64,000 nt of DNA from an uncultured Verrucomicrobiae bacterium (GTDB lineage: Bacteria; Verrucomicrobiota; Verrucomicrobiia; Limisphaerales; Palsa-1400): positions 2,752,001-2,816,000 of the forward strand of contig OY969763.1 in NCBI GenBank assembly GCA_963702845.1, read 5' to 3'. Made by a program: the position numbers and the translations under genes. This document shows positions 6,581 to 64,000 of the stretch, piece by piece (the stretch's first letter is position 1; every line of letters starts with the position of its first letter). The notes under the pieces are model-generated. The model did no database searches. It saw only the letters and a list, made by a program, of their open reading frames with translations, and was not told the origin of the DNA.

Positions 6581-6620
6581 AACACGGACGCACACGGACT
6601 CGCACCGACGAACACGGATT
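6581..6620. repeat. four tandem 10-bp units (consensus MACACGGACK)
   Basis: AACACGGACG CACACGGACT CGCACCGACG AACACGGATT read directly. Confidence 0.75.
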
Positions 6621-6667
6621 GAAGCGCGGGGCGTCAGTCCAAGCGAAAATGTTTTCATTGCGTTCAT

Positions 6668-6699
6668 AAAGTTAGAGCCTCCTCACGTCGGCTGCTACA
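6668..6699 (-). repeat. GTAG-type REP-like element, copy 1
   Basis: AAAGTTAGAGCCTCCTCACGTCGGCTGCTACA; 31/32 identical to 62031-62062; minus strand reads GTAGC-AGCC..GGCT hairpin. Confidence 0.85.
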
Positions 6700-6711
6700 A
6701 ATGGGTAAAAG

Positions 6712-6756
6712 CGGCGCGCGCGGAGCCGGAACGTCCGGTTCGCCAACGCGCCCTAC
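6712..6756 (-). repeat. GTAGGG-type REP-like hairpin
   Basis: minus strand GTAGGGCGCG...CGCGCCG with an inner GAACCGGA/TCCGGCTC stem; starts right after the terminase stop codon. Confidence 0.65.
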
Positions 6757-6757
6757 A

Positions 6758-8257
6758 TTAATAGCCGACGGTGATTTCCAGGGGTTGATGTTTTTGTTTC
6801 GTGGCGCGCACGGCCAGCGACAGGGACCAGAAGCGGTCGGAGTGGCCGGATTCGCTGTGGTCGGCGGTGAAGCGGGTGTTGCCGCTGCTGGTGGGTTCTT
6901 TTCTAATCGCGCGGAGGTCGGCGCGGATTTCTGGAGAGCTCGGGATTTTTATGGTGCGGTCTTCGAAGGCCATGCGCACGGGATAGGCGAGCTCTTCTTT
7001 CATGGCCTGGGTGAAGGTGATGCCTTCAACTTTGTATTTACCGAATTTTTGTTGGGCGCGTTTGGTGAATTGACGACCGATGCCGGTTTGGTCGATGCAG
7101 CAGCGTTTGACGATGGGGAGGGCTAAGAGTTCGTAGAGGGCGGCTTCTTGTGCTTCGAAGGGTTCTTTTTCGAAAACCTGGATCGCGGCGGTGTGATAGG
7201 TGCTGCCGCGTTTGTCGAGGACCCAGATGACGGTGAGGTCTTTGTCGCGGCCGATGTCGACGCCGATGTAGAGTTCGGAGTCTTTGGAGAGGAGGGAGGG
7301 ATCGCAGGACCAGGATGAGGATTGCGAATTGGGGATTTCGGATTGCGGATTGGAAATATCAGAGGAGGCGGAATGGGAATCATGGGAAGAATGGGAATTA
7401 TGTGGGTATTCGGCGGCGGTGATTAGGTCGTAGCTGAGGAAGGCGCTAGCTTCGTCGGCGGAGATGCACATGTATTCCTGGTTGAAGGTTTCTACGTCGA
7501 TGGCGTCGCGACGTTTGAAGTCGAAGTATTCGGCTTCGTCCATTTGTTGGACGAAATGGTTTTCGGGCAGCGCACACTGAATTTTGAAGAGGCCGCCCTG
7601 GTCGAGAAATCGTTGGAGGGTGATTTTGTGGTAGCTGAATTTTTTCGGGTTGCCGTTGTGTTCGATGTCCATTTGCATCCGATGGAACAACGTGCTGGAA
7701 CCGCGTGGGGTGGAGAATATTTCGATGTCGCCGCCCCAATCGCCGCCGGGCATGGCGATGGAAATGAGTTTCTCCTGCTGTTCGTGGAGAGCCAATTCGT
7801 CGATGATGCGGCTGCCGCGTTTGCCGGCTTGAGCGTCGGGATTTGAAGATAAGGAGTGGATGCGGTTGCCGTTGGCGAAGGTGACGCAGTCTTGGGTGAC
7901 GGATTTGATTAAATTTTTTCCGAAGTTGCCGGCGGAGAGGATGCGATCCCATTTTTCGACGTCTTCGAGGAGGAGGCATGCTTGTTTGGCGTCGCGGCTG
8001 GTGGCCCATGTGTCGCGCCCGGGATTGCCGAAGGCGAGGATGAGGTAGCTGCGAAGGGTGGTGATGTCGGACCAGCCGAACTGACGGCCTTTGACGCAGA
8101 ATTTGCGCGGGGAGGTGTCGTTTATCCAAGCGGCCTGATTGGGAAGTAAATAATGGGCGGGCCGGATTTTCGCTTTGCCGATGTGTTTAGTAGCGGCCTG
8201 TGCGGCGATGGTGTCGAGGTAGTCGTAGAGTGAAGTGATTTGTGAATTGGTTTGCAT
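6758..8257 (-). CDS. phage terminase large subunit, Mu gp28-like (orphan)
   Basis: LLPNQAAW Q-motif, KGRQFGWS Walker A variant, IIDELA Walker B, FSTP, nuclease YIGVDIGRDKD, IDQTGIG, HSDRFWSL. Confidence 0.9.
   Translation of the reverse strand: MQTNSQITSLYDYLDTIAAQAATKHIGKAKIRPAHYLLPNQAAWINDTSPRKFCVKGRQFGWSDITTLRSYLILAFGNPGRDTWATSRDAKQACLLLEDVEKWDRILSAGNFGKNLIKSVTQDCVTFANGNRIHSLSSNPDAQAGKRGSRIIDELALHEQQEKLISIAMPGGDWGGDIEIFSTPRGSSTLFHRMQMDIEHNGNPKKFSYHKITLQRFLDQGGLFKIQCALPENHFVQQMDEAEYFDFKRRDAIDVETFNQEYMCISADEASAFLSYDLITAAEYPHNSHSSHDSHSASSDISNPQSEIPNSQSSSWSCDPSLLSKDSELYIGVDIGRDKDLTVIWVLDKRGSTYHTAAIQVFEKEPFEAQEAALYELLALPIVKRCCIDQTGIGRQFTKRAQQKFGKYKVEGITFTQAMKEELAYPVRMAFEDRTIKIPSSPEIRADLRAIRKEPTSSGNTRFTADHSESGHSDRFWSLSLAVRATKQKHQPLEITVGY
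7320..7408. repeat. 7-bp and 9-bp tandem repeats inserted in frame inside the terminase gene
   Basis: GATTGCG AATTGGG GATTTCG GATTGCG GATTGGA (7320-7354) and ATGGGAATC ATGGGAAGA ATGGGAATT ATGTGGGTA (7373-7408). Confidence 0.8.
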
Positions 8258-8300
8258 AACATCTTTTGGTTTTGGTTGAAAAAAGTTGAAATGGCTGAAC

Positions 8301-9080
8301 TTAGGTTGAACGGCTTTCGGTGCGAGCCGGAGCCAACCATGAGTCCGGCAGGTTGAGGGACGCTTTCACCGCCTGGCGTCCGAATTCGGTTGGGCCGGCC
8401 TCGGCGTCTCCGCGAAGTTTCTCGCGCAGCAGTTTGATGCGGTCGTCGCGTTGGCGATCCAAGGAACGAGTGTGAGTGGCGCGGACGAATTTGAAAAATT
8501 CCAGAGGATCTTTCTGTAATTCTTGTTTGAGAACAATGGGATCGAAGTCGCGCATGATTTGAGCCATGTGCAGGTCGATCAAGCGGCCGTTAACGTAGTT
8601 GGCGCGGTTTTGGCCATTGGCGTCGAGATGGCGAAAGTATTGGTCGGTTTCATCCATCCTAAGTCTGAGGCACTGGAAGCGTTCACGTTCTTCCAACCAA
8701 AGTTTGTAGCCTGATTGTTTCCACATGGAGAGGTTGTTTGATGCGATGCCGGGGTGGCCTTTTTCGGTGACGGATTGGATGATGTTTTTGTACGGGACGT
8801 TGTCGTGCAGGGATTCGTTGATGAAGTCGCGGATGGCGGTGGGGAGCTCGCTGATTTTGCTGCGGTGCGGGCGGTGGCGATGTTTTGGTTTGGGCGCGGT
8901 GGCGGAAGTTGATGGCGATGGCGTGGGTTCAGCCGTCCCTTCGGGACTTATATCGTTCTTCGCTTCACCCCGGCACTCAAGTGCCGGACTAGGTTCAGTT
9001 GTGCCTTCGGCACACAAGATGGTGGCGGCGATTGTTGATTCAGTGTTTGTCGGTTCGGCGGTTGTTGTTTCGGTGTTCAT
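8301..9080 (-). CDS. Mu gp27/DUF3486-like protein, putative terminase small subunit, with disordered N-terminus
   Basis: RSKISELPTAIRDFINESL...PYKNIIQ...NLSMWKQSGY resembles the DUF3486 N-terminus; lies directly upstream of the gp28-like gene; start could be 9116. Confidence 0.7.
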   Translation of the reverse strand: MNTETTTAEPTNTESTIAATILCAEGTTEPSPALECRGEAKNDISPEGTAEPTPSPSTSATAPKPKHRHRPHRSKISELPTAIRDFINESLHDNVPYKNIIQSVTEKGHPGIASNNLSMWKQSGYKLWLEERERFQCLRLRMDETDQYFRHLDANGQNRANYVNGRLIDLHMAQIMRDFDPIVLKQELQKDPLEFFKFVRATHTRSLDRQRDDRIKLLREKLRGDAEAGPTEFGRQAVKASLNLPDSWLAPARTESRST

Positions 9081-9247
9081 ATATCTACTTTTTGAGGATG
9101 AGTGTAACAACGTCACTTGGACAAAGGCTGTCCAAGTGAAAATATTTGTGCAGAAAGTTTGCGAGGGGTGGGAATGGTCCCAATTTGTTTATTAGGAGGA
9201 GGTTGCGCGTATTGTTTTGTCTGAGGGGATGGGAGAAGAGGATTTTT

Positions 9248-9310
9248 GAGCCTCCGATAACGGAACAAATTGTTTTGGCGCACGCTGCCGCGAGCTACGT
9301 CGGCTGCTAC
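9248..9310 (-). repeat. interrupted third copy of the GTAG-type REP-like element
   Basis: GAGCCTCC (9248-9255) and TACGTCGGCTGCTAC (9296-9310) separated by a 40-nt insert. Confidence 0.65.
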
Positions 9311-9319
9311 GAGGTTTTA

Positions 9320-9348
9320 TTGACAGTGCTAAAATCGAGGCATACGGT
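9320..9348 (+). promoter_or_regulatory. candidate sigma-70 promoter (possible cassette promoter)
   Basis: TTGACA, 17-nt spacer, TACGGT (weak -10), facing the cassette genes. Confidence 0.35.
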
Positions 9349-9404
9349 GGGGCTACTGATGAAAGTCGGAAAGTATTCCGACTTTCACGTTCACTTATGA
9401 GATT

Positions 9405-9441
9405 AGGCGGAAAGAAGCAGTATATAATAATATAGTTCGGC
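9405..9441 (+). mobile_element. attI-like integron recombination site
   Basis: AGGCGGAA...TATATAATAATATA-GTTCGGC; the core GTTCGGC lies 11 nt before the first cassette ATG and nearly complements the downstream R'' GCCTAAC. Confidence 0.5.
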
Positions 9442-9452
9442 TACGTGAATCC

Positions 9453-9782
9453 ATGCAGTCTATTGACATTTATATGTATGGCTCGCTCAAGGAGCGTTTC
9501 ACGCAACGGTATCGTGATAGGCTGGGCGAGCTATTAGCGGCGCAGTTGGAGGCTGCCACCGGATTCTCAATAGACAGCAAGCGATTTTTCATCTTTGCGG
9601 TTGGTGACGACTTACAGATTCCAGAACCTGCAGTATTTATTTTGGAAGGAGACCTTATCGGCTCAGACAATTTCTTAGTCGAGGCAGAGATCACTTGGCG
9701 GGAAGGAGAAGACATGCCCATCGAGGCTCGATGGTCTCGGCTAAATGTCCGCGAATTGCGTGAGAGATATGGTGGGCTTTAG
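9453..9782 (+). CDS. hypothetical protein (integron cassette 1)
   Basis: 109-aa ORF between the attI-like site and the attC-like site; AT-richer than flanking genes. Confidence 0.65.
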   Translation: MQSIDIYMYGSLKERFTQRYRDRLGELLAAQLEAATGFSIDSKRFFIFAVGDDLQIPEPAVFILEGDLIGSDNFLVEAEITWREGEDMPIEARWSRLNVRELRERYGGL

Positions 9783-9814
9783 CATATTACCCGACTCGTT
9801 ACTTTGAACCCGTG

Positions 9815-9913
9815 GCCTAACCAGAGCGCTGCAGCGGATCCCGACTCTGAGTTGGGACTGCATTTACAATTCTTTAGTCAGTGGCCCGCCGCCGCTGAGG
9901 TTATGTGTCAGCT
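9815..9913 (+). mobile_element. degenerate attC site
   Basis: R'' GCCTAAC, L'' CGCTGCAGCGG ... L' CCGCTGAGG, R' GTCAGCT (non-consensus); sits between two co-oriented ORFs. Confidence 0.65.
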
Positions 9914-9922
9914 CTTACCTAC

Positions 9923-10252
9923 ATGACGAACGAAGAAAACAAAAAAGTCGAGCGGTGGCATCTTAGACTTGGGCGCGCGAAGTTCCTCCGCCCGGGAATT
10001 TTAATTTTTATGGGCTGCGTTTATGCGTTCGTCTACCTAGCGGTTGCCGGTATGATGTTTGTTCTCGACTGGATCGTTCCGCACCTGCCTTGGATTGAAA
10101 AGCCATATGTCAGTCCAGATCCTCCACCGTTGGTTACTGCTTCCTATTGCGCCAACTTCATTCTAGGAATGATGATTATTGGAGCACTGGTCATTTATTT
10201 TGCAGGACCGGAGCGCCAGATCAAACCGCTATGGCCGAAAAAGAAGATTTAA
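9923..10252 (+). CDS. hypothetical two-TM membrane protein (integron cassette 2)
   Basis: ATG 9 nt after R'; two hydrophobic segments; no attC seen downstream. Confidence 0.65.
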   Translation: MTNEENKKVERWHLRLGRAKFLRPGILIFMGCVYAFVYLAVAGMMFVLDWIVPHLPWIEKPYVSPDPPPLVTASYCANFILGMMIIGALVIYFAGPERQIKPLWPKKKI

Positions 10253-10347
10253 AGAACCTCCCACAAACTGAAGAGACAGATTTTTCACCGTCTCCTCACC
10301 TCCCGAGCCTCTCAATTCAAAACAGCATGTTCGAGGATGAAGGTGTG

Positions 10348-10474
10348 TTGGTTTTTCGGCGGCGCGGCGGTTCACGTTAAGGAGAAATCGATCGGTTTGC
10401 GCCGCGCCGCCGAAAAACCAATAAATCAACGGGTAATGGTCGGGTTCTATAGACATGTCACTCCTACGGAGTTT
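10348..10474. repeat. long palindrome plus terminal REP-like hairpin (MITE/REPIN-like remnant)
   Basis: perfect 22-bp inverted repeat 10348-10369/10400-10421, then CTATAGACATGTC-ACTCC-TAC-GGAGT. Confidence 0.7.
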
Positions 10475-10538
10475 CACGCATATGATTCGCGAGCAGGCAC
10501 TCGTAGTAATTTCCTTCGATACGCTTCGCAAAGAACAC

Positions 10539-12068
10539 TCAATACGCGCTGGCGAAGTGGCGATGTTTTGGAAAAACCGGGCGGAGATTTGTTGAAAGAC
10601 TGTCCTGCAATTCCTGCAATTCTTCGTAAACAGCCACGGCCTTTTTATTCGGCGTTGCCGTTTCGCTCTCGTTGAGTTGCACGAACTCGTCGGTGATTTG
10701 ATTGATTCCAACTTTTTCACCGCGCTGCAATCGCCAGGACCAGAGGGCTTGTAAGGCTGCGCCAAAGGCGGCGCCTTCGGCTACTTTGATGGTGACGACT
10801 TCGGCGTTGAATACATTCGCCATGATTTGACGCCAGAGTTTTGATTTTGCGCCGCCGCCGGTGGCGCGGATTTGTTTGGGCTTGAGGCCAAGTTCGCGTA
10901 GGCGTTGCAGGCCGTAGTTCATGCCGAGGGTAACGCCTTCCATGGCGGCGCGGGCGAAGTGGGGTGCGGTGAATGTTTTTGGGGTTGCGCCGAACCAGAC
11001 GCCGGTGCCGTCGGGAATGTTTGGGGTGCGTTCGCCTTCAAGATATGGGAGCAGCAGCAGACCGTTGCAGCCGGCTGGGGCTTTGGCGGCTTCGGCTTCG
11101 AATTGCGCGTGGGTCATTCCGAAATCGTTGCGGACCATTTCGGTCGCGACGGTCACGTTCATGGTGCAGAGCAACGGGAGCCATCTGTTGGTCGAATCGC
11201 AGAACGCCGCGATTTCGCCTTTGGGATCGATGACTGGTTTGTCGGCACAGGCGTAGATTGTGCCGCTGGTGCCGAAGCTCGCGGTGACTGTGCCTGGACG
11301 TGTGTTGCCGGTGCCGATGGCGCCCATCATGTTGTCGCCGCCACCGGCGCTGACGAGAACGCCGGGTTTTAATCCGAGCGCGCGCGCTGTGCTCGCTTGG
11401 AGCAGGCCGGCGGGTTGATCACTGCCAGCCAGTGGGGGAAGTTTGGCGGCGAGATCGCGATCAATCGCGCGCAACACGGCTTCGGACCATTTGCGCGTTT
11501 TCACATTGAGCAACGCGGTGCCGCTGGCGTCGCCGTATTCCATTTTCTTTTCGCCGGTGAGCCAGAAATTCAAGTAGTCGTGCGGCAACAAAATACTGGC
11601 GAGTCGCGCAAAGTTTTTTGGTTCATGCTTTTTGAGCCAGAGAATTTTTGAAGCGGTGAACCCGGGCAAGACGGCGTTGCCAATTTCGCGAATGGTCGAT
11701 TTGAGTCCACCCAGTTTTGCCATGATTTCGTCGCATTCCTTAGCCGTCGAGGTGTCGCACCAAAGTTTGGCTGGGCGAATGACTTTGCCGGCCTTGTCCA
11801 GCGGAACAAAGCCGTGTTGCTGACCGCTGACGCCAATGGCGACGACTTCGTCACCGCTGGCTTTGGCTTCTTTGAGAGAGGCTTTGATCGCTTTTGAAGT
11901 GGCCGAGACCCACGTGGCTGGATGTTGTTCTTTAGCGCCCGGAGAGAGATTGGGGATTAAGCCGTAGGCCTGAGCGCCGGCACCGAGCACTTTTCCATTG
12001 CGCGCATCAACGACTAAAGCCTTGGTGGATTGAGTCCCACTATCAATTCCCAGCAGCAATGTTCTCAT
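10539..12068 (-). CDS. xylB: xylulokinase (FGGY family)
   Basis: LGIDSGTQSTK, SGQQHG, GDASGT, GGGDN, GTSG, LPYLEGERTP, TGGGAKS; start set at MRTLL. Confidence 0.92.
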   Translation of the reverse strand: MRTLLLGIDSGTQSTKALVVDARNGKVLGAGAQAYGLIPNLSPGAKEQHPATWVSATSKAIKASLKEAKASGDEVVAIGVSGQQHGFVPLDKAGKVIRPAKLWCDTSTAKECDEIMAKLGGLKSTIREIGNAVLPGFTASKILWLKKHEPKNFARLASILLPHDYLNFWLTGEKKMEYGDASGTALLNVKTRKWSEAVLRAIDRDLAAKLPPLAGSDQPAGLLQASTARALGLKPGVLVSAGGGDNMMGAIGTGNTRPGTVTASFGTSGTIYACADKPVIDPKGEIAAFCDSTNRWLPLLCTMNVTVATEMVRNDFGMTHAQFEAEAAKAPAGCNGLLLLPYLEGERTPNIPDGTGVWFGATPKTFTAPHFARAAMEGVTLGMNYGLQRLRELGLKPKQIRATGGGAKSKLWRQIMANVFNAEVVTIKVAEGAAFGAALQALWSWRLQRGEKVGINQITDEFVQLNESETATPNKKAVAVYEELQELQDSLSTNLRPVFPKHRHFASAY

Positions 12069-12113
12069 ATCTGCAATTGATACCAACCGAGGCAAAAAGG
12101 CGCAAACTTTGAC

Positions 12114-12128
12114 TGGCATTTGTTATGC
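12114..12128 (+). promoter_or_regulatory. candidate sigma-54 promoter
   Basis: TGGCATTTGTTATGC with GG-N10-GC spacing, 14 nt before the ATG at 12143. Confidence 0.4.
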
Positions 12129-12142
12129 TTGGCATATCAGGC

Positions 12143-13786: not shown

Positions 13787-13836
13787 AGCTCTGCGCGCTT
13801 GCAGCGCGGGCGAAGACTATATCATTCCAAATTTTT

Positions 13837-16151: not shown

Positions 16152-16172
16152 ATCGTAATCCAAAATCCCGTC

Positions 16173-16622: not shown

Positions 16623-16626
16623 AATT

Positions 16627-39047: not shown

Positions 39048-42000
39048 TTACGGGTGGTTTGAGAACACAGCCGTATTGGTCCGTCCAAGCGACATGGTGA
39101 AGGTCAATGGATTGGCCAGTTGATCAGCCAATGGGCCAGTGCTGTCTGACACGGTCCATTTCTGGAAGGTTATGCCTCTGCCGATTGGCGTGGCCTTTAT
39201 TGTGTAATTGTGGCCCACCGCCAGCACCGCTGTGTTGGTCGGGTTGCCCCAGTTCTTCGAGGTCGCATCGGTCACCGAGGTGATCCGGCCAGTCCCGCTG
39301 GTCGCCAGGGTCAGCGCTTGTGGATTGGCAATGAAGAACATGTGCGTGCCCTTCGTGGTCGTGCTCGTGTTGCCGTCCGAGTCCGTCGCCAGGCCCCAGA
39401 AGATGTTGGTTCCATCTACCATGCTCACGTGCGAGAGGAAGAATGCCGGCTTGCCGGCTGCGGTGTTCGTTGCCGTCAGGTCGGTCACCTTCTTCACGAA
39501 TGTCGCCGGGAACACCGCCTGATTGACGGCGTTGCTGACCCAGGCTGACACGATCAAACCTTTATCCACTGCCTTGCCGAGGAAGTCGACATCAGGCGCG
39601 TGATTGGTTCCGGTCGGATCAACTGGAACGTCATTAGTGGTCAACGCGTGTTTGGCTGCCATGTCCGTTGGCTTCAACAAGAGCACCACTTTGGGAACTT
39701 CAGTGTCTTGAGTGACCGTCAGGGAGAGACTGGCTGTGCCACCTGTCGGCGAGTTGTTGCTCACCACGCAGGAGTAGACCGCTGTGTTAGCGGTCTGAAC
39801 ATCCACCAGCGAGTAGGTCGAGGTGGTTGCGCCGCTGATGGCATTGCCGTTCTTGTTCCATTGATAGCTCAGGGTCTGATTGAGCGCACCCTTAGTCACT
39901 TTGGCTACCATGGTGTAGTTGAAACCAGCCAGCAACGTCTTGCTGGGCGGAGCAATTTTCACCAAAGGCGCGTCGTAGACCGTCAGAGTCGCGCTGATGC
40001 TGGTTGCGCCTGAATGGAGCGAGTTGGTCACGGTGCAGTAATAGGAGCCGCCATTGGCCGCGTTAGCTACGTTGTTGATGCTAAGCGTGGCGTTGGTCAC
40101 AGCCGGGATGGTCGCGCTCTTGACCATCTTCTTGGGTGTCGTGGTGCCGTTCTTAACGAAGTACCATTGATAGGTTAACGGGCCAGTTCCACCAGCAGTG
40201 ATGCTGAATGTAATGTTGCTCTTGGTGGTGGCGACCACGTTGACGGGCTGGATGTTGACCGCAGGATCGTTCACGGAGACTACTGCGGCAGTGGTCGATT
40301 GCGTTATGTTATTCGCGGTTACCGCGCAGACGTAGCTGCCACTGTCAGCACCGGTCACATCGGTTTTGCTGTAGATGGCATTGGTTGCACCATCGATGGC
40401 GATGTTGTCCTTGCTCCATTGATAGGTTGCATCCAAGCCAGTCGCAACGACAGTCAATGTAAGAGTCGTGCCAGCGTTGATGGTTTGACCAACTGGCTGC
40501 CCGATAATACCCGGTCCGCACGCGTTAACAGCAACGATAGCTACTGCGCTTGTTACTGAACCGCTGGTTCCAGTCACCACTACGGCGAATCTGCCGGCTG
40601 ATAACGCGTCGACATTAGTGAAACACAAGGTGCTGTTCGTCGCATCTGTGATCGCTGTCCCGTTCGCGTCAGGAGTGAACCATTGATATGTCAGCGCGTC
40701 GGAGCTGGTGGCAACAACGGCAAGGCAGGTGCCTCCGCCGCAATTCACGGTAGTGTTCTGAGGATTCACAACAATGAATGGGTCAATGACAACCAGCGTT
40801 GCGGTCGCGCTTGCTGTGCTGTCGGCATTGTTCGCGGTGACCGTATAACTTCCCGCATCCGAATCCTGCAGGTTGGTGATAGTCAGAGAGGCGGAGGTCG
40901 CACCAACGATGGTGGTGCCGTTATCGGTGACAGGGTTGCCGTCTTTGATCCAGCTATAGGTGAATGGAGCAGTGCCGTTCGCCACGACTGTGAAGACAGT
41001 GGTTTGGGCGAAACCGTTGGTGGCGTTATCCGGGCCGGTTAAAGCAACGGGATCGATAACGGTCAACGACGCAGCGAAGCTGGTCGGCGATCCATCAGGG
41101 CCGGTGACGACGCAGCTATATGCGCCAGTGTCGCCGGATGTCACCGAGGCGATCGTTGTTGATGCCGCAGTTTCGCCGGAAATCGGGTTGTTGTCTTTCA
41201 GCCATTGGTAGGTGAGTCCGGTGCCGATGGCAGTGACACTGAACGTGGCGCTATGACCGGTGGCACGAGTGAGGCTGACAGGATTTGCAGTGATGACAGG
41301 ATCCTGAACGGTGAGGGTCGCGGCTGCCGTGGTGGCGGGAGTACCGGAACCGGAAACGGTACAAGTGAAGGAACCTTCGTCGCCTTGCAACACGCCGTTG
41401 ATGGAGAGCGCGGCTGTGTGGGTGCCAGAATAACTCGCGCCGCTGGCCCCGGCCCCGTCGATCAGAGGTGTTCCGTTAAGGGACCAGGCGTAGGTGAGTG
41501 TTCCGGAGCCAGTCGCAATGCAGGCGAAGCCGATGTTATCACCGGCGTTGGCCGAAACGTTCGCGGGCGATGTCACGACCAGCGGATCGTTGACGGTCAA
41601 TATCGCAGTGCTCGATGCGGAGCTGGCTTCGTTGGTGACGGCAATGGTGTAGCTGCCGTGATCTGCAAAAGCTACACCGGTCAATGTTAAGCTGGGGGTG
41701 CTCGATCCGCTGACGATGCCGCCATCGGTGAGGTTAACACCATTTTTCTTCCACTTGTAGGTGATTGTGCCGCCGCCGGTCGCGGTCGCACTGAAGGTTA
41801 CGGTATCTCCATAGTTTGCAGTAGCGCTCGCCGGAGGGCTGGTGATGGTGACGCCGTCAATCACGGTGAGGGTGGCCGAGTTCGTCACAGAGCTCGGAAT
41901 GGCGTCACTCACGACGACCGTGTAGGTATCGATATCAGCAGCGGAAGCGCCAGTAATGGTCAGCGCGGAGGTGGTTGCACCGACGATATTGCCGCCATTG

Positions 42001-45000
42001 CTGAGAGGAGTCCCACCTTTTGACCATTGATAGGTGAATGGCGCGTCGCCGGTTACAGCAATCGTGAACACGGCATTGGCGCCGGTCGCGACTGTCTTAT
42101 TCGCAGGAGCCGTCGCTGTGATAACGGGCGCCTGAACGGGACCAAAGCGGACGCCGCGCAGTAATTGATTAGGGCCGGCAGTCGATAACACGGTCGGCGT
42201 TGAACCGGAACCGCCATCAACAATGCGAACGAGACTGTTCGCCTGCGCCGCTGCTGTCGTTGCATAGAGAATCGCGCCAGTTACACCGGTGCCCCAGCTC
42301 GTGTTCGCGCTCCAATCTACCGTCAAACAACGAGCGCCATTGGTGCCCCCGGGTAGCGCTTGCAAAGTGTAAGCGTAGGTCCAGCCGCCGGAGGGGCTGT
42401 TGGTGTCGTAGCGTTCGATGCCACCCTTTTGAGAACCATCGTAGGTGCGGTCATCCGCGATGAAGACGGTTTTCAAATCTGGACTGACGGCGAAGTCCTG
42501 GAAGTTGGTGCCGTTCAACGGAGCCAGGAGCAACGATGAATTGGTACTGCCGTTCGCTGCGATTTTCGGCAAGCCCGCGCATACGTTCAGACCAACACTG
42601 CCGGAAGTATCGCAGTATACCAGATTGCCACCGACAATATCGACGCAGTGCGGACCAGCACCGCTGCTCGACGAAATACCCGGAACGCCGCCGCCATTCG
42701 AATAGCTCGCTCCCCACTGCACATACTTAACACCCGCGCTTCCGGCCGCGCCGGCCGTCCAGAAATTCGTTAAGCCGTCGTCCGAAACTGCCGCGCGTAC
42801 GAATTGATTTCCGCCGTTATTGATCCCTTTGTTCGTATACGTTAGCGCGTAGTACCCAAGTGCATTGACAGCACCGATGGCGCGGATCGCGCTGCTACCA
42901 TTATTGACGTTAAAGTTCGTCGACGGATACGCGACGTTGTAACCAATAAAGTTGATATAATTGGTGTTGGCCGAGCGCGTCAGAACGCTCTCGAAGATTC
43001 CATCCGACGATCCCATCGTCAGTAGCATGACATTTGTCCCAGTCGGCACTCCTTGGATGGATTGGTCAGTGCCGAACGCGGAGGTCGGCGTGTCGGGAAT
43101 CATGATCGTGCTGACATATCCACCACTGGTATCAAACTGATCAAGGTAAAGGGTGTTGCCAATGGTCGCGTTCAACGTCTGTGAACCGTCGCCGACGCGT
43201 GCGACAATCAGGTTTGCTGAGGACATTCGCAGGTAATCGGTCGAGACATTCAACGTGCCACTCGCCGTCGCCGGGATTCCAGCAGCATTATTCACGGTCA
43301 CAGCGTAAGTTCCCGCGTCACTCGTCTGAATACTGCTCAGCGTTAACACGCTTGTCGTTTGACCTAGAAGGTTATTGCCATTGTGCGTCCAGGAATAGGT
43401 GAAGGGCGATGTCCCGGTTGCGCTCGCTACAAACGCGAGGTGATCGCCGACTCTTTGTGTTCGCGTCGCTGGAGTTACGGAAACCGACGCTGGAACATTA
43501 ACCGTCAGGATGGCACTGCTACTGGTTGCGGTAGCGGTGCTAGCAGCGCTGGTAACTCTAACACTATAACTGCCAGCGTCCGTTGTTTGAGCGCCTGAGA
43601 TTGTAATTACCGAGGTCGCCGCGCCAGAAATCGAGCCGCCGTTGTTAAGCTGGTTGGCGCCCTTATACCACTGATAGTTCAGCGTGGGCGACCCGTTTGC
43701 GGTGACACTGAAATTAGCCGTATTGCCGAGTACCACAGCAGTTGAGGAAGGTGGTGTAACGACGTACGGATCATTCACCGTCAGCACTGCTGAGCTTGAA
43801 GTACTACCCGCTGTGTCGGTAATCAAAACCGTGTAACTGCCTGCATCTTGATAATTGACGCCTGAAATTGTCAGCGCCGAGGTCGTGGCACCCGAAACCG
43901 TCGCGCCCGAGCCGGAGATGCTGGCGCCATTGCTCAAGTTATTCGCACCCAGTTGCCATTGATACGACAAGCCAGTCGCGCCGGCCGCCGAAACGGTGAA
44001 TTTGGCGGTTTGGCCATAGTTGACGTTCGTATTGGCTGGCGGGGTGACAACACCCGGATCCGTAACTGTCAATGAAACGGTTGAACTGGTAACACTCGCA
44101 CCATAGACGTTCGACACCACACACGTGAACGTTTCACCACTGTCGGCTATTTGCGCGTTCCCGATCGTCAAATTAGCTGATTGTGATCCGGAAATAGTCG
44201 CACCCGTTGCACTTGGACTTGCGCCGTCAGTCAGGTTCGCTCCATTCATCTTCCATTGGTAGGTTACCGGCTGGCTGCCGTTCGCTGTCACCGAGAAGTT
44301 TGCCGATCCGGTGGGATACGTAACCTGCGGCGTCGGCTGCGAGGAAATGGAAGGATCAGAAACTGTAATGACTGCAGGCGAGCTGGTGATGGAAGAAATC
44401 GCATCTGTGGCAATAGCGGTGTAACTAGCCGAATCCTGTGAAGTTACTCCAGCGATTGTCAGTGAGGCTGTTTGCGAGCCAGAGACAACCGCGCCGTCAG
44501 GCAAGGTGCTGTCGGTGAGGTTCACACCATTGCGTTGCCACTGGTAACCGTTCATCGTAATACCACCGGCAACCGCCTTGGCACTGAGCGTCACGGTAGT
44601 GCCCAATGCGTAGGTACCCGAAGCAGGTTGGTTGGTGAACTCAGGGCCGCCGGTGACATATGCCCACGTCGTTCCCATGCGCATACTTCCTATCACAACG
44701 CCATTCGTTGGAGTGCTGTTGGCACCGCGTGCCAACATAAACCAACCTGCCGCGTTGGTAAGAATTCCGCCGCCGTTTGGAACCAGATGATTCACCAATT
44801 CGGTTGGCGGTGTGGCTATGCCGAATGAAGCTGTCGGCGGATCAACCCACAAACGCATCCAGTCATTTGTTACCGTGTTGGAAGTATTAGTTCCGCCAAA
44901 TTCATAGCTCATAACCACGAAATAAGTCGTGTTGCTGATCATGTATCCGTTGTTATTCGGGATTGGCGAGGCCAGCAAATTCGTGGATTTGGCGGCGGTA

Positions 45001-53454: not shown

Positions 53455-53458
53455 ATAA

Positions 53459-56675: not shown

Positions 56676-56676
56676 A

Positions 56677-58017: not shown

Positions 58018-58018
58018 A

Positions 58019-60475: not shown

Positions 60476-60477
60476 GG

Positions 60478-61854
60478 CTAGAACAGTTCGTTGATTGGTT
60501 GCGTCCCAAAATCGACGACCGGGAACGGCCGCGACTGCGGTCCAGGCAGCTTAGTTTCCAGATCAACGCCTACAGATTTGAGGATGGTCGCGACGACTTC
60601 AGACGGTTTCACGGGCCGCTCGGTTGGATATGCACCAATGTCGTCGCTCTTGCCGACGACACGACCGCCTTTCACCCCACCACCGGCAAAATTGATTGTC
60701 CAACATTGCGGCCAGTGATCGCGACCGCCGGCCGGGTTTACTTTTGGCGTGCGACCGAATTCGGCGAGGCAGGCGATCATCGTCTTATCCAACATGCCGC
60801 GCTGGAACAAATCTTCGAGCAGCGCCGTGTAGCCCTGGTCATACATCGGCGCGACGATGTCTTTCATTCCAGCAATGGACGTGAAGGGTTTCGAGCCGTG
60901 AATATCCCACGTGATTTCATCGAACACGGTGATGAACGTGTTGATGGTGACGAAACGCACGCCGCGTTCGACAAGACGGCGAGCGAGCAAACAACTTTGG
61001 CCAAATCGCGTCATGCCATAACGATCACGGACTTTTTGCGGTTCTTTCTCGAGGTCAAATGCCTCGCGCGCCTTGCTGCTCGTCATCAGGCGATAGGCCG
61101 ACGCGAAGTTTGTATCCATCAACTGCGCGTTCGGGCTGGCTTCGAAATTCTTCACCGCATCGTCAACCACCTGGCGCAATTCGCGACGGCGTTCGAGGCG
61201 GGCTTCGCCAATTTCGGTCGGCGGCAAAAGATCTGGAACTTTGAAACCTTTCTTCGAAGGGTCAGCATTCAGCACGAATGGGTCAAATGACTTGCCGAGG
61301 AACCCGGCGTCCTGGCCATGCGGCATGTTTCCGCCGGTCGGGCCCATCGGCTCGGGCAGAATAATATTGGCAGGCAACTCGTTACGGCGGCCTTTCAAAA
61401 ACTCCAACGCGCACCCGACATGCGGCGTATTAACTCCGCCCGTAAATAACCGCCCTGTCTGCATCAACTGATGCCCACCATCGTGCACCGCCGGACCGGT
61501 GTGATAACAACTGCGCACCAGCGAAAATTTGTCGGCGTGTTTGGCGTGGAGCGGGAAAATCTCTGAAATCTGAATGTCCGGATTGTTCGTCCTGATCGGC
61601 TTGAATGGCCCGCGAATTTCCGCTGGCGCATCCGGTTTCATATCCCACGTATCGATCTGGCTGGGCGCGCCGAGATTAAAAATCATGATGCACGAACGAT
61701 CGTCATTTCCCTTAGGTGCGGCGCCCATCGCCTGAAGTTCCGCAAACTTCGATAGCGATAATCCAATCGCGCCCAGCGTGCCGACCTGAAGGAAGTCGCG
61801 ACGGGTTATTCCGTCGCAAGTCGTGATCGAACCTCTGCCGGTGAACTTGAGCAT
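60478..61854 (-). CDS. DUF1501 domain protein (Tat-type signal)
   Basis: ITRRDFL, GAPSQIDTWDMKP, ARRLVERGV, WDIH, EFGRTP, GRDHW. Confidence 0.93.
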   Translation of the reverse strand: MLKFTGRGSITTCDGITRRDFLQVGTLGAIGLSLSKFAELQAMGAAPKGNDDRSCIMIFNLGAPSQIDTWDMKPDAPAEIRGPFKPIRTNNPDIQISEIFPLHAKHADKFSLVRSCYHTGPAVHDGGHQLMQTGRLFTGGVNTPHVGCALEFLKGRRNELPANIILPEPMGPTGGNMPHGQDAGFLGKSFDPFVLNADPSKKGFKVPDLLPPTEIGEARLERRRELRQVVDDAVKNFEASPNAQLMDTNFASAYRLMTSSKAREAFDLEKEPQKVRDRYGMTRFGQSCLLARRLVERGVRFVTINTFITVFDEITWDIHGSKPFTSIAGMKDIVAPMYDQGYTALLEDLFQRGMLDKTMIACLAEFGRTPKVNPAGGRDHWPQCWTINFAGGGVKGGRVVGKSDDIGAYPTERPVKPSEVVATILKSVGVDLETKLPGPQSRPFPVVDFGTQPINELF

Positions 61855-62030
61855 ACGATTATAGACGTAACATCGGACAAAAATATTTGGGCTGCATTTT
61901 AAAAATATCTCTTTCTTGAAATGATTCAATCGCAATCAGTAGTGTCGCGGCCTGTCGGGCGGGACAGATTACTTGCGATTACCTCTGATTACTTCTGATT
62001 ACCTCTTTCGTGTTTTTTCGATTTTCCATA

Positions 62031-62062
62031 AAAGTTAGAGCCTCCTTACGTCGGCTGCTACA
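62031..62062 (-). repeat. GTAG-type REP-like element, copy 2
   Basis: AAAGTTAGAGCCTCCTTACGTCGGCTGCTACA; 31/32 identical to 6668-6699. Confidence 0.85.
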
Positions 62063-62074
62063 TTAGTATAACGA

Positions 62075-62101
62075 CGGACGAAACGGCGTGATCGTCCCTA
62101 C
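62075..62101 (-). repeat. GTAGGG-type REP-like hairpin
   Basis: minus strand GTAG-GGACGA-TCACGCCGTT-TCGTCC-G. Confidence 0.7.
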
Positions 62102-62195
62102 CTGGAAGACATATGCTGGACGGTGTTTTCATGGATCGAGATTACTTGCGATTACCTGTGATTACTTCTGATTACCTTTTTTCATATTTTTCACG

Positions 62196-63590
62196 TCAAA
62201 AACCACGGAGCCTGACTTGGTGGACCTTCTGTGGTTGGGTTGCGATCATGTAACGGAGTGCGTCGGCGGCATCGTCGCCGCCGACACCGGTTTCGTCGGG
62301 ATCGGTTTTCAGGACGTCTTCCGGTCGGTTAGGGTCGCTTTGCAACGTAGGGAGGCAATCGATCAGACGCGAGCAGCGGCGATGGAAAAAGAGTGTTGGT
62401 TTGAGCTTTCCTTCTTCATCGCCGAGACGTTTGAGGATGGCAGCCCAGCCGTTCAGGCGCTCCATATTGGCCTGGCGCATAGAAATTCCCAGTTGCCGGT
62501 ATTGCGATGCAATCGTTGTGCCGTCGCTTTGTTTGCCGAAGATATCAGCGCCTGCGACGAACCTTGCGAGGTTAATCGAATAGCGTTCGTTGAGTCCCAA
62601 GTGATGCCGTTTGAGCATGGCTTTGATCGCCTCTGCGTGACGTTCCGGAATCCAATTACGCGCGGCGTGCTCGTCGACGATGAAGATGTTGTTGTCACTG
62701 TCGCGGCAACCGAGCAGGACGACGGTATAGTGGGTGAAGCCGTAATCAAGCGCAGCGAACCATTCGACGGCGCGGCGGTCGTCGAACTCGTCGATGACGT
62801 GCAATTCCCGGCGGAAGTTGGTGAAGAATTGGCCGGCCTTGATGTCCCAGTCGCCATCCAGCCACGCGCGCCGTTGCCAACCGGTGAGAGAGCCAAGAGC
62901 ATCTTTATATCCGGCGTTGACGAAAGAATTGTCGTTAACGGTCGCTGGGATGAAGCGTGTCTGCTTCTCCTCGCCGCGTTGAAATGGAACGACGTATTTA
63001 GACCGATACCATGCGTGGCCGACACCTCCGGGATTGGTGGTGGAATAGATGCGAGGTCGCCAGCCGGTTTTTGAGGTGCGGTTGCAGGTGCAGATGTCCA
63101 GGAATTTGCGGCTGGTCAGGGTGGTGGCTTCTTCAATGCCTATGACGTCGTATTCGAGCCCTAGATATTTATCGATGTCGTTTTCGTTTTGAAAATGACC
63201 GATGATGATACGTGAGCCGTTTTCGAACGTGAGAACGCCTCGAGTGGTGCTGAACTCGTGGTTGAGCCTGAGGAGAAGACGGCGGCGCAGGTCTTCGAAG
63301 TTTTCGAGGTTGGATTTGCCGACTTTGCGCAGGAGCAAACATTTGAGGCCGGGGAAGCGTTGGCAGTCATCGGTGCCCATCTGAGCGATGAGCCAATGAG
63401 ATTTGCCACCGCCACGCGCACCGCCGAAGCCGATGGAGGTTGGGCCGGTTGCAAGATCGCAAAGGCGCGCGGCGGCACTGGCGGCGAGTTGTTTGGGCTG
63501 AAGTATCACGCCGGCGTTGATGAAGTGCCTTAGCTGATCCGGTGGGCAACCTGCTTCAGTGGCTAAGTTGATGTAGTGTTCGGGAGACAT
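62196..63590 (-). CDS. phage terminase large subunit, PBSX/Terminase_6-like (no portal gene downstream)
   Basis: Q-motif LQPKQ, Walker A GGARGGGKS, Walker B IGIEEA, STTNPGG, nuclease ALDYG and DDAADALRY. Confidence 0.92.
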   Translation of the reverse strand: MSPEHYINLATEAGCPPDQLRHFINAGVILQPKQLAASAAARLCDLATGPTSIGFGGARGGGKSHWLIAQMGTDDCQRFPGLKCLLLRKVGKSNLENFEDLRRRLLLRLNHEFSTTRGVLTFENGSRIIIGHFQNENDIDKYLGLEYDVIGIEEATTLTSRKFLDICTCNRTSKTGWRPRIYSTTNPGGVGHAWYRSKYVVPFQRGEEKQTRFIPATVNDNSFVNAGYKDALGSLTGWQRRAWLDGDWDIKAGQFFTNFRRELHVIDEFDDRRAVEWFAALDYGFTHYTVVLLGCRDSDNNIFIVDEHAARNWIPERHAEAIKAMLKRHHLGLNERYSINLARFVAGADIFGKQSDGTTIASQYRQLGISMRQANMERLNGWAAILKRLGDEEGKLKPTLFFHRRCSRLIDCLPTLQSDPNRPEDVLKTDPDETGVGGDDAADALRYMIATQPQKVHQVRLRGF

Positions 63591-63635
63591 TTGGAAAGAA
63601 AAGTGCCAAGTGATGAGTGATGAGTTTTACTGCAT

Positions 63636-64000
63636 CTAATTTTGGAAATGGGTGCCGTTTGAATTAGCCGTCGCGAGTGGTGGTGGAGGTGGTGGGCAGA
63701 TTTTATTGAGGGCGGCGAGGAGTTCGTTCTGTATGGGTGATAGTGCAGGGCGATCGTCGTCAGTCGTTGGGCTTTGCAGGGCCGAACGGGACATTTTGGA
63801 ACCGATACTCAGGGCGCGCGACAGTTCGGAGATGCGGAATTTTTCGAGGTCGCGATCACCGAAATTTTCGAGGCAACATCGCACCACGTTGAGGAGTTTT
63901 TGTGCGTCTTCCCATTCCTGCTCGCGGTATTCAGCGGTGCGTTTGGCCCAATCAGCAGCAGCTTTCCGAGCCGCTTCTGTTTCAGCCTGCGCTTCCTGTT
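63636..64000 (-). CDS. partial helical protein, putative terminase small subunit (5' end outside the window)
   Basis: frame open to the window edge (QEAQAETEAARKAAADWAKRTAEYREQEWE...); directly upstream of the large terminase. Confidence 0.55.
   Translation of the reverse strand, partial: QEAQAETEAARKAAADWAKRTAEYREQEWEDAQKLLNVVRCCLENFGDRDLEKFRISELSRALSIGSKMSRSALQSPTTDDDRPALSPIQNELLAALNKICPPPPPPLATANSNGTHFQN

Follow-up and report, generated by a model that had tools for sequence, protein, structure and literature searches.

Stand-alone terminase gene pairs in a Verrucomicrobiae chromosome share a promoter palindrome with WYL-type regulator and DNA-repair genes

The window (i.e., the whole 64,000-nucleotide stretch of the chromosome of an uncultured soil Verrucomicrobiae bacterium that was analysed) contains, in the midst of ordinary genes, two pairs of small (TerS) and large (TerL) terminase subunit genes, raising the question of whether such pairs are the debris of decayed phages or packaging modules that have been kept. 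Our tentative reading, to which we assign a probability of roughly 45%, is that they are phage- or island-derived packaging cassettes that have persisted and become part of a WYL-type DNA-damage regulon. An earlier proposal of a host-maintained module, made in a first-pass annotation of the window, finds partial support.

Two terminase pairs of different descent

The terminase genes of the window, and the two small ORFs that take up the remainder of the 4-kb accessory segment (thiH to xylB) around pair A, are as follows:

6758..8257, minus strand: terL-A, large terminase of the Mu gp28-like lineage (Terminase_6N/6C), 499 aa, intact
8301..9080, minus strand: terS-A, small-terminase-like, 259 aa from the first ATG past the promoter
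9453..10252, plus strand: two small ORFs of 109 and 115 aa, no family match
62196..63590, minus strand: terL-B, large terminase of the capsid-island lineage (Terminase_3/6N, GGARGGGKS P-loop), 464 aa, intact
63636..64000, minus strand: terS-B, the C-terminal 120 codons present in the window (phrog_6299, E 1e-20)

TerL-A matched Terminase_6C (E 6e-22), Terminase_6N (3e-5) and phrog_5909 (terminase large subunit; E 6e-34), and its open frame retains three Asp blocks, an IDE/LDE motif and a K-x-R-Q-x-G-W-S/T motif, which may be regarded as a deviant form of Walker A comparable to that of lambda gpA. A family search with TerS-A itself (for which a longer frame with a GTG start, reaching 9116, is an alternative) returned no matches; it is nevertheless probably a small terminase judging from its paralogues, to which it is 36–39% identical and of which five of the eight aligned match Phage_Mu_Gp27. 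The Mu-like packaging module consists of gp27 (TerS), gp28 (TerL), the gp29 portal and gpF. Pair A belongs to the same sequence lineage and probably descends from a Mu-like (gp27/gp28-type) prophage, but is devoid of the portal, gpF and the remainder of that module, and no portal or capsid genes were found adjoining it.

TerL-B, in turn, matched Terminase_3 (3e-7), Terminase_6N (4e-7) and phrog_2 (6e-29), and keeps an open frame in which the GGARGGGKS motif, a Walker B motif (DVIGIEEAT) and the acidic blocks of the nuclease are all present. The whole terS-B gene encodes 260 aa and extends past the window to ~64418, where it is followed by a 156-aa ORF and then sucA, cinA and fur, and no portal or capsid genes adjoin pair B even when this region beyond the window edge is included. 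Its sequence points to descent from the ~23-kb tail-less capsid-forming islands discussed below. Family matches and paralogues thus bore out what the first-pass annotation had described, i.e., two small and large terminase pairs of different lineages (Terminase_6C/phrog_5909 versus Terminase_3/phrog_2), both with intact TerL frames and ATPase and nuclease motifs, and neither accompanied by portal or capsid genes.

Terminase loci and capsid-forming islands in the chromosome

Based on longest-ORF gene calls, the chromosome carries ca. 15 terL loci (eight type-A and seven full-length type-B), so that the window pairs are two among many rather than a special twin set. According to neighbour annotation, at least seven of the 15 (A1w and B1w, i.e., window pairs A and B, and A3, A4, A6, A8 and B7) are bare TerS+TerL pairs, and five (B2–B6) reside within ~23-kb tail-less capsid-forming islands. 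Island B6 encodes an excisionase, RusA, an exonuclease, a primase-helicase, TerS, TerL, a portal, a scaffold, a major head protein, an adaptor and an integrase, and yielded no tail gene matches. The five island head genes exist in exactly five copies, confined to the islands, and TerS/TerL in seven copies plus fragments. The census further returned one HK97-type capsid, two Phage_portal and five DUF4055 portal matches, and none to Portal_Mu in G000, G001 and G002; the Portal_Mu search was negative in its control genomes as well, which leaves its sensitivity uncertain. Since the island head genes are confined to the islands and bare pairs make up seven of the 15 loci, keeping exactly TerS+TerL does not appear random in this genome. 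This earlier claim also gains from the synteny of pair B and the shared upstream operator (see below), and is tempered by the existence of decayed forms.

Such decayed forms are central to a competing account, in which the loci are ordinary late products of prophage and island decay without present function, with terL simply standing out as the phage gene that is longest and easiest to recognise, and with its DNA-damage promoter being a relic of ancestral induction circuitry. We regard this as plausible yet rather unlikely. A graded series of remnants (broken terL, isolated terS, C-terminal fragments of terL and scraps of replication genes) speaks for it: terL carries a stop codon in A5 and is split in A8, one locus has only terS, and in another terS is accompanied by a terL stub of 25 codons. 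On the other hand, 6/8 type-A and 7/7 type-B loci have an open terL frame that retains the catalytic motifs, type-A loci retain TerS in seven of eight cases versus a portal in only two, and the foreign DNA at bare loci stops within ~100–330 nt of the terL stop codon.

Repeats downstream of the terminase pairs

Both pairs are followed by short non-coding repeats:

6711..6756, minus strand: GTAGGG plus GC-rich hairpin, locus A; REP-like family, DNA fold energy –15.7 kcal/mol
6668..6699, unstranded: 32-bp REP-like element, locus A; minus strand reads TGTAGCAGCCGACG...
6582..6618, unstranded: period-10 array, locus A; 3.7 copies of unit ACACGGACGC
62140..62177, unstranded: GATTAC period-10 array, locus B, proximal copy, within a 54-nt direct repeat
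62073..62101, minus strand: GTAGGG plus short hairpin, locus B; weak, –4.9 kcal/mol
62031..62062, unstranded: 32-bp REP-like element, locus B
61967..62006, unstranded: GATTAC period-10 array, locus B, distal copy, ~30 nt before the start of the DUF1501 gene

The locus A hairpin starts straight after the terL-A stop codon, and the 54-nt direct repeat of locus B is kept in the sister species. The first-pass annotation had read these repeats as a common kit marking a shared module. Its components do occur at both loci, with the 32-bp elements identical at 31 of 32 bases, but the array units are unlike (ACACGGACGC versus GATTACTTCT), the orthologous locus B spacer of the sister genome G002 misses the 32-bp element, and the repeats are dispersed genome-wide. 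The 32-bp element has 42 copies (≤7 mismatches; 63 nhmmer matches at E<0.01), frequently arranged as inverted pairs, the GTAGGG hairpins constitute a second family (GTAG plus GC-stem; 33 pattern matches), and GATTAC arrays occupy 11 places, two of which are in locus B. REP/REPIN elements are associated with RAYT (IS200-like Y1) transposases, the usual driver of GTAG-type REPs. Both local families resemble them in beginning with GTAG plus a stem, in their tens of intergenic copies and in their inverted pairs, and the genome has seven Y1_Tnp (IS200/Y1 transposase) matches. The 32-bp and GTAGGG elements are ordinary REP-like intergenic repeats and not terminase-specific, and as generic repeat DNA do not sustain the argument for a common module. 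Even so, the 32-bp family is enriched beside terL, adjoining 4/15 terL loci versus 45 of the 2313 genes that encode 300 aa or more (binomial P 1.7e-4), an accumulation that slack DNA would show and that fits the decay account.

Self-mobile cassettes, with the RNase-H-like nuclease of TerL acting as transposase and the 32-bp repeats as ends, are very improbable and largely refuted. While these elements flank terL-A4 (inverted) and adjoin A1w, A6 and B1w, and cassette sites differ among sister genomes, the repeats lie away from any terL at over 60 sites, are absent from the G002 orthologue of B1w, sit between terS and terL in A4 and A6, and would have their usual driver in the IS200/Y1 transposases. 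Moreover, homology among paralogues is confined to the terL coding limits, without common ends or target duplications.

A palindromic promoter shared by both cassettes

Upstream of terS-A, the following element was identified:

9095..9145, minus strand: promoter/operator of terS-A, palindrome at 9114–9138 plus extended –10-like sequence

The 25-bp palindrome reads CACTTGGACA-N5-TGTCCAAGTG and is followed by TTGTTACACT (extended –10-like), with the terS-A ATG 33 nt further; its terS-B counterpart lies outside the window, at ~64443–64467. The combination of palindrome and extended –10 occurs at 28 genome sites versus none in a reversed control. It points at terS of A1w, A2, A3, B1w and B7 and at the A8 operon, so that one promoter type is common to both window cassettes and four others, and further at two terS-only remnants and one TerS-B-like gene. 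The same palindrome lies 16–20 nt ahead of the start of all four full-length HTH-WYL-WCX genes, and precedes an imuB-like IMS gene, an NAD-ligase and an Mfd-like ORF; no sites were found near the two lexA-like genes. Among genomes of the genus, the site likewise lies before terS-A-like, WYL and imuA-like genes, and the G002 orthologue of B1w keeps the palindrome arms, with the spacer changed from GTCTT to GCCGT. Because several loci have this DNA-damage-type control site in common, the terminase loci may be kept packaging modules rather than dead phage scraps. The palindrome is absent from island-borne terS genes, and the regulon link could therefore have been inherited from phage regulatory regions.

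For the WYL regulator BrxR, the binding site upstream of its own gene consists of 11-bp inverted repeats separated by a 5-bp spacer (PMC9122601), a geometry matched here by the palindrome with 10-bp arms and a 5-bp spacer just upstream of the HTH-WYL-WCX genes. Like the palindrome regulon, those of PafBC (PMC6789036) and DriD (PMC9186387, PMC10853764) include DNA-repair genes; however, the PafBC site is described as non-palindromic (PMC6789036). No published WYL-type regulon with terminase genes turned up in our literature search.

WYL regulators typically govern defence islands (PMC9122601), which together with the WYL-type operator of the cassettes would suit packaging interference, in which terminases kept by the host and induced via a WYL regulator upon infection would act as decoys or defences that compete for, or cut, the DNA or portals of incoming phages or satellites. 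The many divergent TerS variants (20–39% identical within type A) would be expected under diversifying pressure on specificity. Nevertheless, we consider interference improbable: TerL and TerS match no PADLOC models, no known defence genes were seen beside the window cassettes, and a regulon with repair genes (imuB-like, ligase, Mfd-like) better fits a DNA-damage response.

Still less probable is a scattered gene-transfer agent in which the A5 locus, i.e., the single type-A head locus (prohead protease, capsid, connector and portal), gives heads and dispersed type-A cassettes give terminases. With its own terL broken by a stop codon, packaging at A5 would need TerL in trans, and the A5 head genes share a general host promoter type with terS of A4, A6 and A7, loci that have it in place of the palindrome, a point against the regulon reading. 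That promoter, however, also precedes aconitase, a release factor, acs and thiG and is therefore no regulon marker, and window pair A has the palindrome promoter instead.

Conservation and selection in relatives

The two sister genomes, G001 and G002, are MAGs that are 67–73% complete. G002 keeps the order DUF1501-arrays-terL-terS, and its TerL-B is 90.7% identical at the protein level, with a dN/dS of 0.11 at dS 0.51 (cf. 0.04 for a neighbour gene and 0.07–0.08 for island-borne terL pairs). Cassette B has thus been held at one site under purifying selection since the two species split, with constraint near that of island-borne copies, which argues against mere decay. Pair A behaved differently, so that the conservation in sister genomes asked for by the first-pass annotation was found for one pair only. 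The xylB-thiH site of G001 lacks pair A and contains 2.4 kb of different DNA instead, and no orthologue was found, the best G002 copies being 70–73% identical in protein and at other loci, versus ~90% for the housekeeping neighbours of pair A. Type-A paralogue pairs are relaxed compared to B (dN/dS 0.27–0.38). Moreover, beside relatives of pair A outside the genus, 42 of 60 tested terL-downstream ORFs are Portal_Mu, Phage_Mu_F or other portal/head genes, so that its homologues do tend to lie in prophage-type surroundings, counter to the earlier host-maintained reading. All three observations on pair A favour the decay account, whereas three terL copies from one Verrucomicrobiales MAG (L095, L096 and L100) oppose it, showing a dN/dS of 0.08–0.10 without an adjoining head gene. 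Given that the cassettes are intact and that B has stayed in place under purifying selection, they do not resemble plain debris.

A possible role for retained packaging cassettes

In the reading of retained, regulon-wired cassettes, two unrelated mobile-element lineages would have left the window pairs as stand-alone TerS-TerL packaging cassettes. A WYL-type regulator would bind the 25-bp palindrome, and DNA damage or infection would turn the regulon on, so that cassettes would be expressed at the time when procapsids are being made by resident islands or prophages. The fast-diverging TerS of a cassette might then pick the DNA that its TerL would pack into the borrowed procapsids. If true, this would amount to self-serving, GTA- or lateral-transduction-like transfer.

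Local islands B2–B6, the lineage from which pair B stems, resemble known capsid-forming islands (PMC10085698; bioRxiv 10.1101/2025.02.11.637232): they carry integrase, replication, TerS/TerL, portal, scaffold, capsid and adaptor genes and yielded no tail gene matches. Window pair B, in contrast, comprises TerS and TerL only; lacking integrase, replication and head genes, it is not such an island and must borrow capsids and tails if it is to package DNA. RcGTA-type agents differ from the local cassettes in having a conserved head-tail cluster, and the local genome carries many divergent copies of which one cassette only is syntenic. The likeness to these agents lies in phage-derived packaging genes within the chromosome, in an apparently host-type regulon, and in at least one local locus that is vertically inherited under purifying selection.

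Two intact terminase pairs among housekeeping genes

The first-pass annotation of the window (bases 2,752,001–2,816,000 of a closed 6.03-Mb chromosome) had described two intact terminase pairs of different lineages with no portal gene beside them, and this core observation held up against Pfam and PHROG profiles, motifs and flanking genes. The features concerned are the following (window coordinates).

5300–6490: thiH, on the downstream side of terL-A
6758–8257, minus strand: terL-A, 499 aa (Terminase_6C, 6e-22; Terminase_6N, 3e-5; phrog_5909, 6e-34)
60478–61935: DUF1501 gene, on the downstream side of terL-B
62196–63590, minus strand: terL-B, 464 aa (Terminase_3, 3e-7; Terminase_6N, 4e-7; phrog_2, 6e-29)

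By Pfam, PHROG and motifs, both gene products are large terminase subunits, each combining a packaging ATPase (Walker A/B) with an RNase-H-like nuclease, and no paralogue departs from the others in the motif columns of either activity. A terS-like partner gene lies directly upstream of each terL. While terS-B is identified as a small terminase by this position and its phrog_6299 match (E 1e-20), terS-A yielded no match of its own to Phage_Mu_Gp27 (PF11985) or a TerS PHROG, and a profile of its paralogues gave nothing meaningful against PDB sequences (best E 0.09). It is, nevertheless, 36–39% identical to its paralogues, of which five of the eight aligned match PF11985 (best E 1e-6), and the TerS proteins of the type-A (Mu gp28-like) loci A6 and A7 match phrog_426.

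Using our own ORF calls (a simple longest-first rule), pair A was found to be flanked by thiH, a redoxin gene and xylB, and pair B by the DUF1501 gene, PSD1 and sucA. Pfam detected no portal or capsid family on ORFs within ~6.5 kb either side of the two pairs, and no prophage gene block (integrase, replication, head, tail, lysis) was encountered at either. The reservation that portal and head genes might lie just past the window edge was dispelled, as that side holds nothing but the remainder of terS-B, a 156-aa ORF without a match, and then sucA, cinA and fur.

Two local sequence features were also seen around pair A. A Ser/His/Asn-rich low-complexity insert (window 7300–7390; TerL-A residues ~290–320) sits between the ATPase and nuclease domains and is common to pair A, its paralogue A2 and one copy in the sister species G002 only. 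Moreover, a perfect 22-bp inverted repeat (window 10348–10421) between the convergent xylB gene and a 115-aa ORF is probably a two-way terminator at the edge of an accessory segment.

A chromosome-wide census of terminase loci

The two pairs do not form a special twin set: whole-chromosome searches with each TerL revealed eight type-A and seven full-length type-B (capsid-island lineage) places, so that the window pairs are two among 15 terL places, seven of which are bare pairs. When ~19 kb was taken around each place and Pfam was run on the 257 ORFs within ~6.5 kb of terL, bare TerS+TerL amid housekeeping genes was found for pairs A and B themselves and at A3, A4, A6, A8 and B7. Of the remaining type-A places, A2 consists of TerS, TerL and a portal gene followed by hom/thrC, A5 of prohead protease, capsid, connector and portal genes and, after them, a terL interrupted by an in-frame TAG, and A7 of TerS, TerL and a 637-aa ORF without a match; the terL of A8 is split into two frames. 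Genome-wide, there was one match to an HK97-type capsid, two to Phage_portal (A2 and A5) and five to the DUF4055 portal (all in the islands B2–B6), so that A2, A5 and B2–B6 account for every portal and capsid match of the genome. Portal_Mu gave no match in the studied genome or in the sister-species assemblies G001 and G002, and none in control genomes either, so that the sensitivity of this profile is unproven. Retention in this chromosome is biased toward TerS+TerL. TerS diverges far faster than TerL throughout; within type A, identity is 20–39% vs. 44–74%.

As to their wider surroundings, HEAT-repeat genes recur beside A2, A4, B5 and B6, and beside two terminase loci of another MAG (L095 and L096), in the first of which the repeats and an ECF-type sigma factor are joined in one gene. 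Near the bare pair B7, the second gene upstream is a collagen-repeat/Peptidase_S74 (tail-fibre-like) gene (L033:11923–13482) beside nuoH-L.

Capsid islands and Mu-like modules as source lineages

The terL genes of B2–B6 lie in related elements, of which the ~23-kb B6 island reads, in PHROG order, excisionase, RusA, exonuclease, primase-helicase, TerS and TerL, followed by ~6 kb of small opposite-strand ORFs and then portal, scaffold, major head protein, structural protein, head-tail adaptor and integrase, with a host sigma factor after the integrase. The PHROG scan of this island returned no tail gene. In a tblastn census with all B6 ORFs, every head gene occurred in exactly these five islands, while TerS/TerL of the B lineage occurred in those five, in two stand-alone copies and in fragments. 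Island B6 resembles cf-PICIs (integrase, replication, TerS/TerL, portal/capsid/adaptor, no tail match), from which window pair B differs in comprising TerS+TerL only.

The TerL search also returned one internal piece and five short pieces (36–67 aa; genome 398731, 397792, 3447102, 1543223 and 3667425) of the extreme TerL-B C-terminus, the latter ending at the last residues. Between terL and the portal gene, B2–B6 carry a variable block of 5–16 kb, made up of small ORFs on the opposite strand, and the 3′ end of terL may serve as the point at which this block inserts or recombines.

To place type A, we retrieved 80 related loci of other species and ran Pfam on the first ORF of 200 aa or more after terL (n = 60). 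Since 42 of these 60 were Portal_Mu, Phage_portal, Phage_portal_3, Phage_Mu_F or Mu-like_Pro, the type-A lineage is elsewhere part of a Mu-like head module, a result that counts against a host-maintained module in the case of pair A. (A phmmer search with five local portal seeds found portals in 5 of 65 loci with enough flank; these seeds were too narrow, and Pfam was used instead.)

Conservation and selection

On contig C284 of G002, the DUF1501 gene, two downstream repeat arrays, terL and terS occur in the same order as at pair B, with homology lost ~100 nt upstream of a palindrome preceding terS (see below). Nei-Gojobori estimates were made on gene pairs, the two sister genomes being fragmentary MAGs.

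Divergence of pair B and its neighbour from G002.
terL-B: protein identity 90.7%, dN/dS 0.11, dS 0.51
DUF1501: protein identity 93.2%, dN/dS 0.04, dS 0.92
terS-B: protein identity 67%, dN/dS 0.25, dS 0.93

Cassette B (i.e., the stand-alone TerS+TerL pair) is hence syntenic in the sister species and under purifying selection, with a terL dN/dS well away from the value near 1 that would have spoken against a maintained module; island-borne terL pairs gave 0.07–0.08.

Pair A fared differently, since the expectation that it would be kept at the same site was contradicted by contig C438 of G001, on which xylB and thiH are separated by 2.4 kb of unrelated DNA without terS or terL. At ~1500–2050 of this contig, two small ORFs that look toxin-antitoxin-like by eye occupy the place of terS-terL, and accessory DNA seems to collect preferentially at the xylB–thiH site. 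The nearest G002 copies (70–73% protein identity; dN/dS 0.27–0.38) stand beside orthologues of other genes of the studied genome (~90% identical). In yet another Verrucomicrobiales MAG, three terL genes on separate contigs (L095, L096 and L100), none with an adjoining head gene, share ~89% DNA identity exactly over terL, with dN/dS of 0.08–0.10; these could be strain variants binned together.

In a tree of 91 TerL-A sequences (FastTree only), pair A, A2, A3, A4, A6 and same-genus copies form one clade (SH-like support 86–93), in which a portal adjoins A2 only, and A7 sits on a very long branch.

These data bear on two rival accounts. That the pairs are plain debris is unlikely but deserves serious weight: the head-module relatives of type A, the interrupted terL genes of A5 and A8 and the empty site in G001 would suit it, and the constraint on cassette B would not. 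Inert cassettes would still make the locus a clean case of biased prophage decay. As to gene transfer agents, whose phage-derived genes are passed on vertically under purifying selection, the syntenic, constrained pair B (dN/dS 0.11) and the absence of pair A from its site in G001 point in different directions, as far as two fragmentary sister genomes go; that the pairs are parts of a scattered gene transfer agent we consider quite improbable.

Repeats downstream of the two terL genes

Both pairs had been credited with the same downstream non-coding kit, consisting of a GTAGGG hairpin, a 32-bp element and period-10 arrays. The repeats are indeed present and the 32-bp family is enriched beside terL (4 of 15 loci vs. 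45 of 2313 long genes, P 1.7e-4), but the notion of a shared kit is undercut by the many genomic copies, by array units that differ between the loci and by the situation at pair B in G002. Allowing up to 7 mismatches, 42 copies of the 32-bp element (6668–6699 and 62031–62062 in the window) were counted, frequently paired at short distance in inverted orientation; a profile gave 63 matches at E<0.01, and the stem varies compensatorily (GAGCC...GGCTC vs. GAGAC...GTCTC). The GTAGGG hairpins belong to a second family with GTAG and a GC stem. Both are REP-like repeats, showing GTAG with an imperfect palindrome, many intergenic copies, inverted pairs and Y1 transposase genes in the genome (seven IS200/Y1 matches).

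The period-10 arrays are real at both loci, with units unrelated between A and B. GATTAC/GTAATC arrays occur at 11 places in the genome (including genome 4505444), with one run of at least 9 units, and those at terL-B (61967–62006 and 62140–62177) form a 54-nt direct repeat kept in G002. Since the orthologous G002 spacer has both arrays and lacks the 32-bp element, the latter arrived later and independently. We infer that its enrichment at terL reflects repeats gathering in slack DNA.

The 32-bp repeats were also considered as transposon ends and rejected, as the copies resemble one another no further than the limits of the terL coding sequence and the repeat is missing from the G002 orthologue. 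No shared ends or target-site duplications bounding the cassette were found either, and a terminase acting as a transposase is hardly credible.

A shared palindrome upstream of terS

When paralogues were compared, a short stretch immediately ahead of terS proved to be conserved. It is a perfect palindrome, CACTTGGACA-N5-TGTCCAAGTG, followed by ACnTTGnTAnnnT (extended -10-like) and, 19–40 nt further on, the ATG. The chromosome contains 28 such sites vs. none for the reversed control, with sites oriented by spacer and -10 box and the promoter read by consensus.

Palindrome sites and the genes behind them.
Window 9114–9138: before terS of pair A
~443 nt past the window end: before terS of pair B
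A2 and A3: before terS
B7: before terS, with one small ORF between
A8: before an operon ending in terS-terL
Further site: before a terS-A without terL
Further site: before a terS-A remnant, then a 25-codon terL stub
Further site: before a TerS-B-like gene
Genome 1186239 (L067): before an imuA-like ORF, then an IMS (imuB-like) gene and a 1051-aa ORF
L063: before an 80-aa ORF, then NAD-ligase adenylation-domain frames (genome ~41000–42051)
Further site: before a ~1,120-aa ORF with Mfd-like helicase motifs (judged by eye)

The terS genes of both window pairs thus share this palindrome as a predicted operator. All four full-length HTH-WYL-WCX regulator genes (WYL and WCX domains detected) likewise have it 16–20 nt ahead of their start; three of them flank islands B2, B3 and B6 and the fourth is chromosomal, with homologues in 37 of 41 related genomes. 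The imuA-like/IMS/1051-aa arrangement is kept behind the palindrome in G001 as well (L206), and looks like an imuA-imuB-dnaE2 mutagenesis cassette (dnaE2 being putative) under a WYL-type operator rather than LexA. LexA itself is an unlikely candidate for the factor behind the palindrome, since neither of the two lexA-like genes (1.99 Mb) has a site nearby. At L063, the adenylation domain of the NAD-dependent DNA ligase is split over two frames, which may reflect a frameshift, a pseudogene or an additional copy of the ligase.

The palindrome hardly occurs outside the genus. At up to one mismatch, it is present 27 times in the studied genome; G002 has 18 sites and G001 four, and in both it precedes terS-A-like, WYL and imuA-like genes. 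The cassette B orthologue in G002 has intact arms and a changed spacer, a pattern that would be expected of an operator bound by a dimer. Among 41 genomes, one of another genus (G022) has nine sites with another spacer, three have one each and 34 have none. Because six of the nine G022 sites are without a match to the TerS/WYL reference set, the link between terminases and palindrome is shown within the genus only.

Upstream of its own gene, the WYL regulator BrxR recognizes inverted repeats of 11 bp separated by 5 bp (PMC9122601), and another WYL factor, PafBC, drives the mycobacterial DNA-damage regulon (PMC6789036). The present arrangement resembles a BrxR/DriD/PafBC-like regulon in having an HTH-WYL-WCX regulator and an inverted repeat at its own and target promoters, including terS of both window pairs. 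The placement of the palindrome and these parallels lead us to infer a regulon responding to DNA damage or infection under WYL control, with a predicted operator, which would include six terminase cassettes of both lineages.

Possible function of the cassettes

We favor the reading that these are retained, regulated TerS-TerL cassettes, at a probability of roughly 0.45. A WYL regulator would bind the predicted operator, and damage or infection would switch the cassettes on when islands or prophages are induced, upon which TerS would select DNA and TerL would fill procapsids supplied in trans. The chromosome has head genes that could act in trans, with five island sets available to type B and a single head locus to type A; the borrowing of capsids is the weakest part of this reading. 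Packaging interference, in which the orphan pairs would hinder phage packaging, could make use of the same intact enzymes and the same predicted switch; PADLOC matched none of the four terminase proteins (two TerL, two TerS) and none of the small ORFs, and we hold packaging interference to be improbable.

A more specific version of the retained-cassette reading, which we regard as doubtful, is that of 'packaging-only' satellites of satellites: a WYL switch would respond to damage, a private, rapidly evolving TerS would mark nearby chromosomal DNA and TerL would load it into procapsids of resident tail-less islands or Mu-like phages, with the cassettes and the DNA around them spreading by transduction and homologous recombination and never encoding a capsid, integrase or replicon.

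Each component is of a familiar type (Mu-like terminases, cf-PICI-like islands, REP repeats and WYL regulators), while full-text literature searches found no description of bare TerS-TerL cassettes, many per genome, in a WYL/DNA-damage regulon. If the cassettes work, they would represent minimal capsid exploitation, in which only the DNA-choosing and -pumping enzyme is kept and timed by the host damage response, and would add a further layer beneath phage satellites and gene transfer agents; they could also account for 'orphan' terminases that annotators usually dismiss as prophage junk. The predicted 25-bp operator and WYL regulator moreover offer a concrete, testable regulon joining DNA repair, island regulators and packaging genes in Verrucomicrobiales, whose damage response is little studied.

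A second, general promoter type

Instead of the palindrome, A4, A6, A7 and the head genes of A5 carry the general promoter type of the genome, i.e., TTTCCCT repeats, CCCTACAnTTTTTGAC, a 17-nt spacer and a -10 box, of which ~31 examples were found genome-wide (e.g., L164–L193), ~13 of them with a conserved ~70-nt leader (GCGTAGCTACTTTATGGCATCATCGG...). This motif (TTTCCCT repeats with TTGAC) was considered as a special phage-gene promoter and rejected, since among 27 downstream ORFs scanned it fronts ordinary genes too, including those for aconitase, release factor, acetyl-CoA synthetase (acs), ThiG (thiG) and sulfite reductase, as well as a DnaB-like gene.
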